A stretch of 21,568 nt of DNA. Source: Vulcanimicrobiota bacterium (GTDB taxonomy: Bacteria; Vulcanimicrobiota; Vulcanimicrobiia; Vulcanimicrobiales; Vulcanimicrobiaceae). The translations under genes were made by a program, and so were the position numbers. This document shows positions 9,952-15,816 of the stretch, in pieces. The stretch's first letter is position 1. Every line of letters begins with the position of its first letter. The notes below the pieces were generated by a model. That model saw nothing but the letters and a program-made list of their open reading frames with translations. It did no database searches and had not been told where the DNA came from. The stretch covers positions 1 through 21,568 of the forward strand of contig PLCF01000048.1 in the NCBI GenBank assembly GCA_003135555.1, given 5' to 3'.

Positions 9952-11055
9952 TCAGCCGACGGTAAAGCGCTCCAACTTCTCGAGGCCCAAGCGCTCGGCC
10001 ATCGCGTCGAGTCCGTCCCAGACCTTCGGATCGATCGGCACGCCCTCGCGGCGATAGCGCTCCGTGTTCGCACGCTCGGGTTCACCGGCGGTGACGACGC
10101 TCTCCACGCCCGGCACCGGCGCGCTTTGCTCGAACGTTTGCAGCTCGCGGGCGACGTCGCGCTCGAAGTCCTTGACGTCGCGCAGCGCGTCGATGCGGAA
10201 CGCGCCGAAGAAGTGGGCCACCGTTCCGCCGTGCATGCCGCGTTCGTCGAGCCCCAGAGCGGTGCCGAACATCCCGCCCGAGAGCACGCCGCACAGGATC
10301 TCGACGAGCGCGCCGAGCCCGTAGCCTTTGTGCCCGCCGCCCTCGGTGCCGTAGCCGCCCAGCGGCAGCAGCGCGCCGACCGTCATCGCCGTCGTCGGAT
10401 CGAGCGTCTCGCGCCCGTCGGCGCCGACGGCCCAACCCGGCTTGAGCAGCTTGCCTTTGCGCTCGCTCACCTCGAGCCGCCCGAACGTCACGCCGCTCGT
10501 CGACATGTCGAGCACGTACGGCGCGTGCCCGTGGGCCGGGATCGCGACCGAGATCGGGTTGGTCCCTTGGGTTTTCTGGGCCCCGAACGTCGGCACCGTC
10601 AGGTGCGTCGAGTTCGTCATCGACAGGCCGATGCAGTCGTGCTCGAGCGCCAGCATCGCATAGTAGGCTGCGATGCCGTAGTGATTGGAGTTGCGGACGG
10701 TCGCAAACGCGAGGCCGTTTTGGCGCGCCTTGTCGATCGCCTTGCGCATCGCAAAGACGCCGGCCGGGTGACCGAGCCCGTTGCCGGCGTCGAGCGCGAA
10801 CTGGGTCGGGCGGTCGCACAACGTCGCGTAGGCCGGCCGCGCGTTGACGACGCCGCCCTCGATGCGGCGCACGTAGAACACGTCGAGCCGCGCGATCCCG
10901 TGCGATTCCACGCCGCGCAGATCGGCCGCCACGAGCACGTCCGCGACGTCACCCGCGTCGGACTCGCTCACGCCGACGGCGCTAAGCGCGCGCACGATGA
11001 AGTCGTGCTCGTCCGCCTCGTGCGCGCGAATAGGTGAGGGTGCTTCGCCGATCAT
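9952..11055 (-). CDS. Ldh_2-family (malate/L-lactate/ureidoglycolate dehydrogenase-like) oxidoreductase
   Basis: ADLRGVESHGIARL, VRNSNHYG, GTNPIS, LDMSTS and GGHKGYGL. Start uncertain (11055 or 11088). Confidence 0.9.
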   Translation of the reverse strand: MIGEAPSPIRAHEADEHDFIVRALSAVGVSESDAGDVADVLVAADLRGVESHGIARLDVFYVRRIEGGVVNARPAYATLCDRPTQFALDAGNGLGHPAGVFAMRKAIDKARQNGLAFATVRNSNHYGIAAYYAMLALEHDCIGLSMTNSTHLTVPTFGAQKTQGTNPISVAIPAHGHAPYVLDMSTSGVTFGRLEVSERKGKLLKPGWAVGADGRETLDPTTAMTVGALLPLGGYGTEGGGHKGYGLGALVEILCGVLSGGMFGTALGLDERGMHGGTVAHFFGAFRIDALRDVKDFERDVARELQTFEQSAPVPGVESVVTAGEPERANTERYRREGVPIDPKVWDGLDAMAERLGLEKLERFTVG

Positions 11056-11187
11056 GGCGAGGAAAATGCGCTCAGCGGAACGCCACATCCTCGCCGCTTG
11101 GCAGCTCGTTCGGTCAAAGAGGAACCCGACCCGCGAGCGCCAAGTGCACACGCCCCCATTCCACGTCGTACCTCTGCCGCTCGATCG

Positions 11188-11193
11188 GGAGGA
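11188..11193 (+). promoter_or_regulatory. Strong Shine-Dalgarno sequence for the small peptide gene
   Basis: GGAGGA followed by AAGCAC and then ATG 11200. Confidence 0.75.
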
Positions 11194-11199
11194 AAGCAC

Positions 11200-11394
11200 A
11201 TGCAGAGCAAGACTCGCTACAGCGACGCCGATGTCAAGACGATCTGGCCCAATGCGCCGCAGGCCACCACCGCGCCGGACGATCAGGGCCGCGACGATCC
11301 GCCGCCACCCCCGCCGCCGGGTCCGGACGACCAAGGCCGCGACGATCGTCCACCACCGCCGCCGCCCGACGATCAGGGTCGCGACGACACGTAA
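11200..11394 (+). CDS. 64-aa repeat peptide, candidate RiPP-like precursor (leader + 3x PDDQGRDD with polyproline spacers)
   Basis: MQSKTRYSDADVKTIWPNAPQATTA-PDDQGRDD-PPPPPPPG-PDDQGRDD-RPPPPP-PDDQGRDD-T. Strong RBS; repeats differ only synonymously; 6 nt upstream of the JmjC oxygenase. Confidence 0.8.
   Translation: MQSKTRYSDADVKTIWPNAPQATTAPDDQGRDDPPPPPPPGPDDQGRDDRPPPPPPDDQGRDDT
11275..11388 (+). repeat. Three 24-nt imperfect direct repeats encoding PDDQGRDD
   Basis: Copies at 11275-11298, 11323-11346 and 11365-11388. Confidence 0.9.
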
Positions 11395-11400
11395 CGAGCC

Positions 11401-12615
11401 GTGCTGACGCGCGACCGAGCCGTACGCGCGCTCGACCGCTGCGTTCGCATCGACCGCCGGCGGTTCTTCGAGGAGATCTGGTCGCAGCGGCCGCTCCTGG
11501 TCGACCGCCGTGACGATGCGGCGTTCGGCGACCTGTTCTCGCTCGAGAGCGTCGACCGCATCCTCTCCGGCACGTTTCCGCGCCGTCCCGCCGTTCGGCT
11601 CGTCAAGGACGGCGCGGAGCTGCCCCCGAGCTCGTACGTGCGCACGGTCAGCCTGGGCTCGGAGTGGCTGCACGACGTCATCGACGCCGGGCGCGTGTAT
11701 GACGCGTTCCAGAACGGCGCGACGATCGTGCTGCAAGGGCTGCAGCGCTACTGGGAGCCGGTCGTGCGCTTCGCGCGCGACTTGGAGCTCGAGCTCACGC
11801 ATCCCGTTCAGGTCAACGCGTACGTCTCTCCGCCGGGCGCGCGCGGCCTGGGCGTTCACTACGACACGCACGACGTCTTCGTGCTGCAGACCGGCGGCTC
11901 GAAGCGGTGGAACGTCCACGAGCGCGCGGTCGACGTTCCGCTGCCGCACCAGCGCTCGCGCACGGTGCCGGTTCCGCAGGAGTCGGTGATCGAGACGGAG
12001 CTGCTCGCCGGCCAGTCGCTCTACATCCCGCGCGGCTTCTTGCACGAGGCGATCGCGACCGCGCAGGTCTCCGTCCATCTGACCGTCGGGATGCTGTGCT
12101 ACACCTGGAAAGACGTCTTCGACGAGGCGTTCAAGGACCTGGAGGACGTCGTCGAGTTTCGCGCAGCGCTGCCGGCCGGATTTGCGAACGACGCCGAGGC
12201 GCACGCGCCGGCGGTCGCGGCGAAGCTGCGGGCGCTCGCGGCGTGGCTCGAGACGCGCGATCCGAATGCGCTCGGCGAGCGCGTCGCAAACCGCTTCCTC
12301 TCTTCGCGCGCGCCGGTCCGGTTCGGACAGTTCGAGCAGCTGCCGCTCATCGAAGCGCTCGGCGAGCGCAGCCAGGTTCGCCTGCGGTCCGGCAACGTGT
12401 TCGACGTGCGCGGCGGTGACGAGGGCGCGATCGAGGTCGTGCTCGGCGATCGCAAGCTGGTGATGCCGGCGCCGCTCGAGGACGCGCTGCGCTTCGTCGC
12501 GCGCGGCGAGCCGTTCGCTCCCGCCGACCTGGAGATGTTCGAGGACGGCGAGAGCGCGACGGCGTTCGTGCGGCGGCTCGCGCGCGAAGGGGCGCTCGAG
12601 ATCCTCAGCCTGTAG
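11401..12615 (+). CDS. JmjC/cupin Fe(II)/2-oxoglutarate oxygenase, RoxA/NO66/MINA53-like
   Basis: FFEEIWSQRP; NAYVSPPGARGLGVHYDTHDVFVLQTGGSKRW (H153, D155, K168); LYIPRGFLH (H215); C-terminal winged-helix-like region. Confidence 0.9.
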   Translation: MLTRDRAVRALDRCVRIDRRRFFEEIWSQRPLLVDRRDDAAFGDLFSLESVDRILSGTFPRRPAVRLVKDGAELPPSSYVRTVSLGSEWLHDVIDAGRVYDAFQNGATIVLQGLQRYWEPVVRFARDLELELTHPVQVNAYVSPPGARGLGVHYDTHDVFVLQTGGSKRWNVHERAVDVPLPHQRSRTVPVPQESVIETELLAGQSLYIPRGFLHEAIATAQVSVHLTVGMLCYTWKDVFDEAFKDLEDVVEFRAALPAGFANDAEAHAPAVAAKLRALAAWLETRDPNALGERVANRFLSSRAPVRFGQFEQLPLIEALGERSQVRLRSGNVFDVRGGDEGAIEVVLGDRKLVMPAPLEDALRFVARGEPFAPADLEMFEDGESATAFVRRLAREGALEILSL

Positions 12616-13450
12616 GGCGCCCGAGCGCTGCGAGGCGCTCCGCGACGTTCGCCAGCAGACGGTCGGCGGCGTACTCGTCGTAGCGCGCGCGGTCGTAACA
12701 CATGGCGAGCCAGCACCGGCCGTCGACGACCGCACCGGGGGCGAGGATTGCGGGTTCGCCCGGCGCGACGAGCGGAAACGCGAGCAGCGTGCCGCCGGCG
12801 CCGACGTTGGTAACGGTTGCGACGGCGCCGCCGACGTCGGTCGCGGTGAGCGCGCCGGCCTGGGCGCGTTCGGCGAAGTCGCGGATGCGCACGCCGATGT
12901 CGTGCAGCGAGGCGTCGCGTGCGTCGGGGACGACCGGCACGACCAGACCACCCGGCACCTCGACCGCGACCCCGATGCGGTCGGCCTCGAGCGCCTGCGC
13001 GAAGGCCTTGACGAAATACGCCGTCCACGCCACGCCCGCGCGCTCGATCCCGGACAGATCGACCTGCCGCGCGCACGAACCTTGCGCGATGGTCGCACGC
13101 GCTTCGGTCATCCGCTCGGCAATACGCTTGCGCATCGGACTCAGGCCGCCGGGCCGCGCCTGCGGCGCCGCGCCGATCGGCCGCGAAACCGCGGTGTGCT
13201 CGCCCGCGACGGATCCGCCTTCGTTCGCGAAGCGCGCCAGGATCTGACCGACCTCGGCGCGTTCGCCCGCGGCGACGACGATCTCGGCGAGCACGCCGTC
13301 GTAGGGCGACTCGATGTCGGTGTTCACCTTGTCGGTCTCGACGGCGAACAGCGGCTCGCCGCGTTTCACCGTATCGCCGGGGCGCTTGTACCACTCCGAC
13401 ACGAGGCCGTCGACGAGCGTGTCGGCCAGCCGCGGAAACTCAACGTCCAT
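12605..13450 (-). CDS. Reduced dihydrolipoamide acyltransferase (E2): lipoyl domain plus degenerate catalytic domain
   Basis: Lipoyl motif VETDKVNTDIESP; LSPMRKRIAERM; IGVAVEVPGGLVVPVV; ATVTNVG; YDRARYD in place of DHRxxDG. Confidence 0.8.
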   Translation of the reverse strand: MDVEFPRLADTLVDGLVSEWYKRPGDTVKRGEPLFAVETDKVNTDIESPYDGVLAEIVVAAGERAEVGQILARFANEGGSVAGEHTAVSRPIGAAPQARPGGLSPMRKRIAERMTEARATIAQGSCARQVDLSGIERAGVAWTAYFVKAFAQALEADRIGVAVEVPGGLVVPVVPDARDASLHDIGVRIRDFAERAQAGALTATDVGGAVATVTNVGAGGTLLAFPLVAPGEPAILAPGAVVDGRCWLAMCYDRARYDEYAADRLLANVAERLAALGRPTG

Positions 13451-14879
13451 CTTCCACCGCAGTCTTGAAGGCGGCGAGGAAGCGGCCGACGTCGGCGCCG
13501 TCGACGGCGCGATGGTCGACGGCGCAGGCGGCGTACGCGCGCCCGTCGTGCACGGCACCGATCCGCAGCGCCGCGGTTTGGCCGGGCCGGACGAACGGGA
13601 TCGCGAGGTCGCTCCCGGCCGGACCGTAGTCGACCAGCGTGATCGTGCCGCGCCCGCTCGCCGGCGACGTCGCGCCCAAGTCGAGATCGACTCGCACCTC
13701 GTCGTGCGCGACGAGGCCCGTCCAAGCGAAGGTCGCGTTGCACTGCGGAACCGCGCGCACCGCCGCTGCCAGCGCGTCGACGGCGAGGCGGGTGTGCTCG
13801 ACCGGCAGCGCGACTTCGACGATGCTCGAGGCCTGCGGTATCCCCGGATCGTAGGCCGCCGGGGCGGCGCCTCCGGCGTGCGAACGCGGTCGCGCGACCA
13901 GCCGCGCGAGCGCGTCGCCGATCGTCGCGCGATTGGGCAACAGCGCGTCTTCGAGCACCTCGTCGACCGGGATCCCGGGGATGTCGGGCATGGCGACCCG
14001 TACCGGCGGCACGTCGAGCACGCCGGCTTCGGCCGCCAGCGCGCACAACTCCGCGCCCAGCCCCATCGTGAGCGTGTCTTCGTGCACGACGCACAGCCGG
14101 CGCGTTTTCGCCAGCGACGTCAGGATCGTCTCGCGGTCGAGCGGCGCGAGCGTGCGCAGGTCGATCACCTCGACGTCGATCCCCTCCTGCGCGAGCACAT
14201 CAGCGGCGGCGAGCGACTCGTGCAGCATCATGCCGTAGGCGAGCACCGTCGCGTCGGCCCCGGCGCGTGCGACCGCCGCGCGCCCGATCGGCACGACGTA
14301 CTCGCCTTCGGGGACCGGGCCGCGAATCGCGCGGTACGTACGCTTGTGCTCGAGCACCAGGACGGGATCCGGATCGCGAATCGCCGCGACGAGTAGGCCC
14401 TTCGCGTCGGCCGGCGTCGAGGGCGCTACGACCTTCAATCCCGGCGCATGCGCGTAGAAGGCTTCGACGGATTGCGAATGATACGGTCCGCCGCGAAAGC
14501 CGCCGCCGTAGGCGGTGCGCAGCACCATCGGGCACGACCAATCGCCGCCGGTACGCCAGCGGATCTTCGCCGCCTCGCCGACGAGATGGTCCATCGCGGC
14601 ATGAATGAAGTCGGCGAACTGGATCTCGGCGACGGGCCGCATCCCGCGCATCGCCAGACCGACGGTCACCCCCGCGATCACGGTCTCGGCCATCGGCATG
14701 TCGATGACGCGCTGCGGCCCGAAACGCTCGTACAGCCCTTCGGTGGCGCGAAACACGCCGCCCAGTTTTCCGACGTCCTCACCCAGGACCAGAACGCGCT
14801 CGTCGCGCGCCATCTCTTGCGCCAGCGCCTCGCGCACCGCCTCAACCACGCTGAGCTCACGGCTGACGGTGTTAGGCAT
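13440..14879 (-). CDS. 2-oxoacid dehydrogenase E1-beta fused to a shortened E2 catalytic-like domain
   Basis: GEDVGKLGGVFRATEGL, AEIQFADF, YHSQS and EVIDLRTLAPLD, then about 135 aa ending AVDHRAVDGADVGRFL. ATG 14879 overlaps the E1-alpha stop. Confidence 0.85.
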   Translation of the reverse strand: MPNTVSRELSVVEAVREALAQEMARDERVLVLGEDVGKLGGVFRATEGLYERFGPQRVIDMPMAETVIAGVTVGLAMRGMRPVAEIQFADFIHAAMDHLVGEAAKIRWRTGGDWSCPMVLRTAYGGGFRGGPYHSQSVEAFYAHAPGLKVVAPSTPADAKGLLVAAIRDPDPVLVLEHKRTYRAIRGPVPEGEYVVPIGRAAVARAGADATVLAYGMMLHESLAAADVLAQEGIDVEVIDLRTLAPLDRETILTSLAKTRRLCVVHEDTLTMGLGAELCALAAEAGVLDVPPVRVAMPDIPGIPVDEVLEDALLPNRATIGDALARLVARPRSHAGGAAPAAYDPGIPQASSIVEVALPVEHTRLAVDALAAAVRAVPQCNATFAWTGLVAHDEVRVDLDLGATSPASGRGTITLVDYGPAGSDLAIPFVRPGQTAALRIGAVHDGRAYAACAVDHRAVDGADVGRFLAAFKTAVEDGR

Positions 14880-15816
14880 AGGCGTGGTCCGCAACCGTCG
14901 CGGGGTCGCCGAGCGGTTGCGCTTCGGCCCACTCGGCGGCATCGTCGGCCTGGGCGGCGCTCTCGGCGTCGACGCGTGCTGCAAAATCGGCGCCCACCAA
15001 AGCGCGCGCGCGCACCAACGGATCGCCCTTCACGCGCACGGCGTCGACCTCGGCACGGTCGCGATAGCGCGAGTCGTCGTCGTTGGACGTATTGGGCATG
15101 AAGCGCACGCACGCCGCGTCGATGAGCGTAGGGCCGTCGCCGGCGCGCGCGCGTTCGACCGCCTGCGTGGCCGCTGCGTACATCGCCTCGACGTCCATCC
15201 CGTCGACCGCGATCCCGGGCATCCCGTAGCCCGCCGCGCGGGCGACGAGCATCTCGGTCGCGTACTGGTCGCTGCGCTTCACCGACTGCGTCCAGCCGTT
15301 TCTATGCACGACGAAGACGCACGGCAGCCGGTGGATCGCCGCAACGTTCATGGACTCGTGCACCTCGCCTTTCTGCGCCCCGCCGTCGCCGAAGGCGATC
15401 ACCGAGACACTGCCGTCGCCGAGCAGCTTCGAGCCCCACGCGCAGCCGACGCCGTGCGAACAGTGGTTCGGCTGCGGTCCCTGCTGCGACAGCACGTGCA
15501 ACTCGCGCGAGCCGAAATGCGCGTAGGGCTGACGCCCGCGGGCGTTCGGGTCCGCGGGCCGCGAAAAGAAGCACAGCATCACGTCGCGCGGTTCCATCCC
15601 GAGCACGAGCAGCGCGGCGAGGTCCCGGTAGTGCGGCGAGAGCCAGTCGACGCCCGGCCGCATCGCCAGCGCGTAGCCGACGCCGATCGCCTCATGCCCG
15701 CTGCACGGGACAGCGAAGTGCGCGCGGCCCGCGCGTGCGAGCCGCCACATGCGCTCGTCGAGTGCCCGCGCGAGCGAAAGCGCACCGTAGGCGCGCTCGC
15801 GCTCGGCCTGCGTCAT
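14872..15816 (-). CDS. ThDP-dependent 2-oxoacid dehydrogenase E1-alpha (branched-chain-like, divergent)
   Basis: GHEA, PHYRD, ThDP motif GDGG..KGEVHESMN...VHRN, AAGYGMPGIAVDGMD and GPTLID. Confidence 0.9.
   Translation of the reverse strand: MTQAERERAYGALSLARALDERMWRLARAGRAHFAVPCSGHEAIGVGYALAMRPGVDWLSPHYRDLAALLVLGMEPRDVMLCFFSRPADPNARGRQPYAHFGSRELHVLSQQGPQPNHCSHGVGCAWGSKLLGDGSVSVIAFGDGGAQKGEVHESMNVAAIHRLPCVFVVHRNGWTQSVKRSDQYATEMLVARAAGYGMPGIAVDGMDVEAMYAAATQAVERARAGDGPTLIDAACVRFMPNTSNDDDSRYRDRAEVDAVRVKGDPLVRARALVGADFAARVDAESAAQADDAAEWAEAQPLGDPATVADHAYA

Follow-up and report, generated by a model that had tools for sequence, protein, structure and literature searches.

Organization of the locus

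The stretch of DNA analysed here (hereafter, the window) comprises 21,568 nt from a Vulcanimicrobiota bacterium (GenBank assembly GCA_003135555.1, contig PLCF01000048.1, positions 1 to 21,568). Its forward strand carries the pair of genes that forms the subject of this work: a small open reading frame (ORF) for an acidic repeat peptide of 64 amino acids (aa) and, 6 nt after the stop codon of that frame, the GTG start (11401) of a JmjC-type 2-oxoglutarate (2OG) oxygenase. The peptide, MQSKTRYSDADVKTIWPNAPQATTAPDDQGRDDPPPPPPPGPDDQGRDDRPPPPPPDDQGRDDT, begins with a unique N-terminus of 25 aa, which is followed by three identical PDDQGRDD units with Pro-rich linkers between them (Table 1). It has no match in Pfam or NCBIfam, and seven of its relatives, compared with NCBIfam, gave only low-complexity matches, far under the cut-off. 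The pairing of the two genes is conserved across several phyla, and the peptide is probably a dedicated substrate of the oxygenase.

The original prediction, made from the letters of the sequence, had described a 64-aa ORF with a strong ribosome-binding site (RBS), the 25-aa N-terminus, the three PDDQGRDD units, and the 6-nt gap, and direct reading found it right in every detail. It had further placed the pair between a divergent gene on the left and a convergent operon on the right, which are now identified as an Ldh_2 family dehydrogenase gene and an operon for a 2-oxoacid dehydrogenase (E2, E1 beta, and E1 alpha components), respectively. The H-x-D...H triad that it considered intact in the oxygenase is borne out by the alignment, in which H153, D155, and H215, together with K168, are invariant in 48/48 homologues.

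Table 1. Positions of the features discussed in the text, in the window or in the homologous locus named.
Feature	Locus	Position	Strand	Basis or remark
GGAGG ribosome-binding site	Window	11188..11192	+	7 nt 5' of peptide ATG; read directly
Acidic repeat peptide gene, 64 aa, stop included	Window	11200..11394	+	ATG 11200, TAA 11392-11394
Leader recognition stretch, aa 4-17, KTRYSDADVKTIWP	Window	11209..11250	+	Leader alignment; predicted contact with enzyme C-terminal domain
Core unit 1, PDDQGRDD, aa 26-33	Window	11275..11298	+	Read directly; codon comparison
Pro-rich linker 1, aa 34-41	Window	11299..11322	+	Not conserved in orthologues
Core unit 2, PDDQGRDD, aa 42-49	Window	11323..11346	+	Read directly; codon comparison
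Pro-rich linker 2, aa 50-55	Window	11347..11364	+	Read directly
Core unit 3, PDDQGRDD, aa 56-63, then C-terminal Thr	Window	11365..11388	+	Read directly; codon comparison
JmjC 2-oxoglutarate oxygenase, ribosomal oxygenase (ROX) type, 404 aa	Window	11401..12615	+	PF08007; NO66/MINA53 profile match; AlphaFold2 model; Foldseek
H153-Y154-D155 codons, HxD of the iron triad	Window	11857..11865	+	Invariant 48/48; aligned to HYD of NO66
K168 codon, presumed 2OG-binding lysine	Window	11902..11904	+	Invariant 48/48; aligned to GrK lysine of NO66; role inferred
H215 codon, third iron ligand	Window	12043..12045	+	Invariant 48/48
C-terminal winged-helix domain, like a RiPP recognition element (RRE; see text), aa 318-404	Window	12352..12612	+	Domain model, Foldseek; predicted leader-binding site
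Tat-type precursor (see text), 130 aa, Steroidobacteraceae	L075	2474..2866		Leader LTDDQITTE, then RRRRSFL...
Tat-type precursor, 128 aa, Acidobacteriota	L059	2495..2881		Leader LSNDQISTE, then GRRSFL...
Ldh_2 family dehydrogenase, flank, outside the system	Window	9952..11076	-	Divergent; Pfam
2-oxoacid dehydrogenase E2, flank, outside the system	Window	12605..13558	-	Convergent; Pfam

Coding status of the peptide gene

The window DNA is GC-rich and full of long chance frames, so the coding status of the peptide ORF was checked directly. Orthologues at the same chromosomal site provide the first line of evidence (homologous loci are numbered with the prefix L). At L083 (genome G014, same genus), where the enzyme is 77% identical, the upstream peptide has 88 aa, with a leader as in the window and five PDD[Q/A]GRDD units, joined by linkers of Gly, Ala, Pro, and Lys rather than poly-Pro. 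At L104 (genome G343), four units are separated by linkers of Gly, Ser, Ala, Pro, and Gln. The three same-site orthologues, window included, thus have three, four, and five units and unrelated linkers, while the leader and the unit are kept: GRDD occurs in 12/12 units, and GRDDT forms the C-terminus in all three peptides. Comparison of the codons of eight units (three from the window and five from L083) gave 65 synonymous differences vs. 12 non-synonymous ones, and all 12 fall on unit position 4 (Q/A).

Public metagenomic data contain further relatives. The proteins P0001-P0004 (63-75 aa) share leader and units with the window peptide, and the three that have a source name are each annotated as 'hypothetical protein'. 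Contigs covering the region were also obtained from peat metagenomes (four runs, from as many studies). In three runs, the peptide gene is whole, with the unit number unchanged and with one Tyr-to-Phe and one synonymous change relative to the window; in the fourth, it is spread over two pieces and shows a few more differences, at low depth. The codon pattern of the units, along with the leader and units kept in orthologues and metagenomic proteins, points to selection acting on the leader and the unit, and not on the linkers or the copy number. Judged from these sequence comparisons, the peptide ORF is a coding gene and not a chance frame.

The linkers of the window (11299..11364) hold runs of seven and six prolines. 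Runs of consecutive prolines are prone to stalling, and their translation usually needs elongation factor P (EF-P). Poly-Pro linkers were seen only in the window genome and in its closest metagenomic relatives; since the orthologues use other linkers, poly-Pro is a lineage-specific trait.

Pairing across homologous loci

The homologue set consisted of the best 80 of 569 confirmed enzyme relatives from species-representative genomes. A strict scripted criterion, which called for an ORF upstream on the same strand that combines the leader motif with a net-acidic tail, detected a peptide ORF in 65/80 loci, and a looser scan combined with reading by eye added seven others (L020, L070, L072, L077, L059, L075, and L050, which is truncated by the contig end and partial). 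Four loci with less than 260 bases upstream (L025, L028, L043, and L068) were left out of the tally, leaving 76 testable ones. Scanning homologues for upstream Asp-rich repeat ORFs that share the leader was the check proposed with the original prediction, and such ORFs are present in 72 of these 76 loci, from Actinomycetota, Chloroflexota, Armatimonadota, Acidobacteriota, and Pseudomonadota. The two genes are often tightly packed: the enzyme start overlaps the peptide stop in 27 of the 61 loci with an assignable start, and the median gap is 8 nt. The pairing of peptide and oxygenase is beyond chance and constitutes a conserved unit. A library clustered at 50% contains 1,160 representatives of the enzyme family itself at E <= 1e-30. 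At L025 and L028 (Rubrobacter-type, contig ends), a Gly-rich frame with DASGDTGGGG repeats ends about 100 nt 5' of the enzyme; this frame, which the contig end interrupts, possibly represents another type of core.

The leader can be aligned across phyla as [LIY]-x-D-x-[DE]-[IV]-x-T (Y-S-D-A-D-V-K-T in the window). Among 40 aligned peptides, D9 never varies, and both D11 and position 12 (I/V) are nearly invariant. The cores are far more diverse: TD/SD repeats with DVDGTDA at the end in Acidimicrobiales, EGxADGGANPxGHDGGADGSA units in Microbacteriaceae, Cellulomonas, and Micromonosporaceae, (DGGA)n in Nakamurella, DADGTDG in Chloroflexota and Armatimonadota, and DDxGxDD in the window and L012. 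The original prediction had also mentioned small proteins, rich in Asp and Gly and with an SDDDI-like N-terminus, as neighbours of similar cupins in Actinobacteria; the locus scan and the alignment showed this to be correct. Asp (at least 13% of each core) and Gly occur in 70/70 cores and are the only two residues common to all, compared with 28/70 for Arg, 38/70 for His, and 15/70 for Lys. The class of peptide follows the enzyme tree, with 11 label changes vs. a shuffled mean of 27.9; as related genomes share labels anyway, this match is not a proof of co-evolution.

Two features by which ribosomally made, post-translationally modified peptide (RiPP) systems are recognized are thus found here, namely a precursor gene beside the modifying enzyme (in the 72 loci counted above) and a leader/core organization, in which the leader is conserved and the units are kept, while linkers and unit number vary.

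The oxygenase and its C-terminal domain

The oxygenase matches the Pfam family JmjC_2 (PF08007) with an E-value of 1.8e-23 and 82.9 bits (cut-off 22). A profile built from its family finds human NO66 (E 2.5e-51) and MINA53 (2.3e-46), and E. coli YcfD far more weakly (4.5e-14). The AlphaFold2 model of the enzyme (predicted local distance difference test (pLDDT) 94.3, predicted TM-score (pTM) 0.90) resembles NO66 over its whole length (Foldseek TMq 0.70-0.72). Both model and search reveal the three-domain ROX architecture, in which a JmjC barrel is accompanied by a helical domain and, at the C-terminus, by a beta-beta-beta-beta-alpha-alpha-beta domain.

This last domain contains invariant residues (R329, R392, L393, and E396) and, folded alone, reaches a pLDDT of 92.9. 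Its best matches in the PDB are the winged helices of MINA53 and NO66 (TMq 0.75-0.79), and the next ones are RRE domains (TMq 0.50-0.59), i.e., those of PbtF (8t19, leader-bound), ThcOx, TruD/LynD, McbB, and TbiB1 (with leader). At the sequence level, the domain has no match to an RRE family of Pfam or NCBIfam.

Two further proteins depart from this layout. In P0016 (493 aa), an enzyme homologue, the N-terminus itself bears two fused leader-like motifs, and acidic repeats are missing; P0115 (819 aa) is extended at its C-terminus by about 400 aa.

Predicted docking of the leader

The complex of enzyme and peptide was predicted from the enzyme alignment and from peptide residues 1-40 with their own alignment, along with three controls. 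The ipSAE scores were 0.71, 0.73, and 0.73, vs. 0.00 in all three controls. The mark used for this score is reached by 116/157 solved complexes and by 2/215 mismatched pairs, counts that are only roughly applicable here, because own alignments were supplied. At least 55% of the contacts agree between the runs, and the pLDDT of the partner is at least 55.

The predicted interface involves, on the peptide side, residues 4-9 and 11-17, which correspond to the conserved leader and, in the C-terminal domain of the enzyme, the strand 350-356 and two helices (358-362 and 379-396). In the model, the invariant R392 adjoins the invariant D9. The prediction supports docking of the leader by strand addition, the usual mode of RREs. 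Reading the target residue off the same model failed, as only the leader is confidently placed.

Chromosomal setting, third gene, and exported forms

In the window, the pair is an opposite-strand insertion between the E2 and Ldh_2 genes (11076..12605). It is present in 3/25 orthologous Ldh_2 loci of the genus, while in 6/25 (L100, L101, L103, L106, L107, and L118) E2 abuts Ldh_2 (within 75 nt) and the pair is missing. This distribution indicates that the pair is an accessory two-gene cassette. The neighbouring operon is itself unusual: the E2 ORF is short (317 aa), with a partial catalytic-domain match, and the end of the E1-beta ORF (13440..14984, minus strand) matches the C-terminal part of the 2-oxoacid_dh catalytic domain, so that, in the region 12605..14984, E2 seems to be oddly split or rearranged.

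Clustering of the flanking ORFs of the 80 loci brought out one further conserved gene, directly downstream and on the same strand, which encodes a Suc_Fer-like [2Fe-2S]-type protein of about 300 aa (PF06999; 6/6 tested were over the cut-off). Of the 75 loci whose downstream sequence is long enough, 57 have it: a strict position rule identified 37, and in 20 more the match sits inside a longer open frame. The Micromonosporaceae loci and the window display a two-gene form without it, the convergent E2 gene following in the window; a search of the window's own assembly (84% complete) yielded no PF06999 gene. Several other neighbour ORF clusters that seemed conserved were discarded, as they turned out to be alternative frames, in GC-rich DNA, of the genes for the enzyme or the Suc_Fer-like protein.

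Two sister enzymes from different phyla, at the diderm loci L075 and L059, are accompanied by a longer precursor, in which a twin-arginine translocation (Tat) signal lies between the leader and the repeats (DPDKV or SDPDAKK). We know of no description of such a leader-signal-core layout. If read at face value, the order of these elements implies modification in the cytoplasm before Tat export. No Tat-type upstream peptide was found with four further gammaproteobacterial homologues (29-44% identity; five matching genomes of 300 sampled).

A separate RiPP-like cluster lies on one contig of a same-genus genome (L091, 1096..2679, and L090, 1264..3780). It comprises two JmjC_2 genes, two radical S-adenosylmethionine (SAM) genes, and two precursor-like ORFs of 39 aa, with an acidic leader (L-[ST]-[ST]-[DE]-[DE]-V-D-V) and a Tyr/Cys-rich C-terminus.

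Proposed mechanism and alternative explanations

The reading that we consider probable is that of a dedicated substrate-enzyme pair. The leader of the peptide would dock as an added strand on the C-terminal winged-helix domain of the enzyme, which has the fold of an RRE; docking would tether the disordered acidic tail near the Fe(II)/2OG centre (H153, D155, H215, and K168), and this centre would then hydroxylate one residue in each PDDQGRDD unit. Asp beta-hydroxylation is the most economical target, because no residues other than Asp and Gly are shared by all cores and, of these two, only Asp bears a side chain; we give it about an even chance. Hydroxylation of Arg at C-3 in the window lineage, by analogy with YcfD, is a more doubtful candidate, kept in view because Arg is equally conserved in this lineage and YcfD is an Arg hydroxylase; a target other than these two appears unlikely. 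As to the fate of the product, the lack of a conserved leader protease or exporter suggests that the peptide probably remains a small acidic protein in poly-hydroxylated form, while the Tat forms of diderms would be modified in the cytoplasm and then exported. A role in binding metal (Fe3+ or Ca2+) is no more than a plausible conjecture, drawn from the known chemistry of beta-hydroxy-Asp and from the neighbouring Fe-S-type gene.

Several observations weigh against this reading. That the enzyme acts on the peptide, which residue it modifies, and what function results are inferred throughout. The complex model, in which the leader is the only part placed with confidence, puts no core residue at the iron centre, and as RRE-leader complexes are present in the PDB, part of the score may reflect a learned likeness of binding mode. 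No upstream peptide ORF was found at 4/76 loci (L031, L035, and L062 from Chloroflexota, and L056 from Planctomycetota), and the enzymes of these loci retain the invariant C-terminal residues. In the window lineage, Arg is as conserved as Asp, GRDD being present in every unit of the orthologues. The window enzyme is the only PF08007 gene found in its 84% complete assembly, for which reason a ribosomal substrate is still conceivable. The leader-like motifs fused to P0016 mean that leader binding could regulate the enzyme instead of delivering a substrate. Finally, no leader protease, exporter, or transporter is conserved beside the pair among the flanking ORFs of the 80 loci, the neighbours in the window belonging to primary metabolism, and the RiPP label is therefore incomplete. 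The RiPP-like system of the original prediction thus stands as regards the conserved pair and the leader/unit layout, gains from the structure and complex predictions a plausible mode of leader binding on an RRE-like domain, and falls short as regards the processing and export genes.

Among the alternatives, the closest retains the same pair and, in the window lineage, replaces Asp with Arg as the target, a C-3 hydroxy-Arg being formed in each PDDQGRDD unit. Specificity would have shifted from one clade to another, just as ROX enzymes have come to differ in their preference for Arg or His. ROX enzymes are indeed named as Arg and His hydroxylases in PDB titles, YcfD/RoxA acts on uL16, and GRDD is kept in the 12 orthologue units, as well as in the units of P0001-P0003. 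Nevertheless, Arg is missing from 42/70 cores; the most similar unit elsewhere, that of L012 (DDAGADD / DDSGKDD / DDAGQD), has A, K, or Q at the Arg position; and the enzyme is far closer to NO66/MINA53 than to YcfD (for NO66 and YcfD, E 2.5e-51 and 4.5e-14). This version of the pair seems rather unlikely to us. An enzyme that oxidizes a ribosomal or other protein, the acidic protein being a non-substrate partner on its winged-helix domain (a pseudo-substrate inhibitor, chaperone, or regulator), would agree with the ROX architecture, with a sole PF08007 gene in the assembly, with P0016, where leader-like motifs occur without repeats, and with a complex model that places the leader only. This is quite improbable in view of the accessory distribution (3/25 loci, and a close enzyme orthologue in 1/24 other same-genus genomes), which would be odd for ribosome modification; of the purifying selection on units whose number and linkers vary, which a mere domain-binding partner would not need; and of the Tat forms, which would export the repeat part away from the cytoplasmic enzyme. 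The context (coupled peptide and accessory distribution) argues for a substrate other than a ribosomal protein.

The proline runs of seven and six residues, together with a stop-to-start gap of just 6 nt, would suit a regulatory upstream ORF (uORF), whose poly-Pro stalling tunes oxygenase expression and whose product is functionless. We regard this as very improbable: poly-Pro is restricted to the window genome and its closest metagenomic relatives, the linkers of the orthologues differ, and leader and units are kept at the protein level across phyla. As for a chance frame running over a GC-rich tandem repeat, the abundance of long spurious frames in such DNA would allow for it, yet it hardly deserves any credence, given the RBS, the codon pattern of the units, the frame-specific conservation in 72 loci, and the 63-75-aa proteins that gene callers independently predict in public data. 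Three findings disfavour the non-substrate partner, the uORF, and the chance ORF: the pair is accessory, its units are under selection, and Tat variants exist.

A broader scenario can be sketched around the dedicated pair, although we hold it to be improbable. The ROX winged helix might have begun as a leader recognition element, with the bacterial family, the closest prokaryotic kin of NO66/MINA53, representing an ancestral one-enzyme RiPP-like pathway to a poly-(beta-hydroxy-aspartate) metal binder, which Actinomycetota would retain inside the cell and diderms would export by Tat. Such a product would be the first ribosomally made counterpart of beta-hydroxy-Asp siderophores.

Significance and relation to known systems

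If the proposed reading is true, the pair represents a minimal and widespread one-enzyme/one-peptide system. The ROX winged-helix domain would gain a function, that of leader binding, and a natural substrate would be at hand for the bacterial enzymes closest to human NO66/MINA53. Tandem-repeat hydroxylation of Asp (or Arg) would join the chemistry of ribosomal peptides, and the link with the Suc_Fer-like [2Fe-2S]-type gene, along with the Tat-exported forms, hints at a role in metal or redox biology. The chemistry of the pair is open to a direct bench test.

The nearest characterized relatives are the ribosomal oxygenases NO66/RIOX1, MINA53/RIOX2, and YcfD/RoxA, which share with the window enzyme the three-domain architecture, the HxD...H triad, and the position of the 2OG lysine. 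The identity is only 21-23%, and the window family has an invariant T156-H157-D158 after HxD, where NO66 has D-I-E. Whereas NO66, MINA53, and YcfD act on His or Arg of ribosomal proteins encoded elsewhere (uL16 Arg, uL2/Rpl8 His, and Rpl27a His), the window enzyme has its own coupled acidic peptide gene. To our knowledge, no leader-binding role is known for the winged-helix domain of these three enzymes. A bacterial MinA/No66-like clade was listed by Iyer et al. in 2010, with no mention of a coupled acidic peptide in the available part of the text (PMC2938197).

Recognition of leaders by RREs is textbook knowledge. The RRE-dependent enzymes (PqqD-like; PbtF, TbiB1, and LynD/TruD) resemble the window C-terminal domain in fold and in the predicted addition of a strand beside a helix; the TM-scores are moderate (0.50-0.59), and family membership at the sequence level is absent. 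Fusions between RRE-like and PF08007 domains are noted in a paper from 2025, which also mentions that bacterial homologues occur in RiPP-like contexts; the window system is not described in the portion of that paper available (PMC12710340).

In terms of chemistry, the JmjC class is known to hydroxylate Asp among other residues (PMC11575548), and SmaO, an Fe/2OG enzyme, is reported to beta-hydroxylate Asp in a DGDG motif, requiring that the Asp adjoin Gly (PMC12186529). D-G and G-x-D are likewise frequent in the cores of the window family. SmaO, CinX/DurX, YhhC, and CanE perform the very chemistry proposed for the window pair (Fe/2OG-dependent formation of beta-hydroxy-Asp on a ribosomal peptide), but on one or two residues of a single core within a larger pathway, and not on tandem units. 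None of them was recovered among the relatives of the window enzyme, and none is described as JmjC in the parts of the sources available.

The Tat-type precursors call to mind the bufferins, periplasmic RiPP metallophores modified by a multinuclear non-haem iron-dependent oxidative enzyme (MNIO), which bear an N-terminal Sec signal and are modified in the cytoplasm before export by the general pathway (PMC11626156). Bufferins rely on an MNIO that makes thiooxazoles from Cys, and on a Sec signal, while in L075 and L059 a Tat signal is preceded by a separate recognition leader; the window peptide, unlike bufferins, has no signal peptide.

PF08007 tailoring hydroxylases in RiPP clusters, leader-RRE recognition, and signal-bearing RiPP metallophores are already known. 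No description of a ROX-architecture oxygenase with its own leader-bearing acidic-repeat peptide, usually accompanied by a Suc_Fer-like gene, was found in the literature searched. The closest precedents are PhaI (phaeornamide, PMC8784127) and BipG (biphenomycin, PMC12707348), PF08007/JmjC hydroxylases that act on RiPP precursors. These enzymes hydroxylate ornithine generated by a peptide arginase, in multi-enzyme clusters that also contain class-defining enzymes. In the window system, by comparison, the oxygenase is the sole modifying enzyme, arginase, protease, and transporter are absent, and the cores are Asp-rich repeats.

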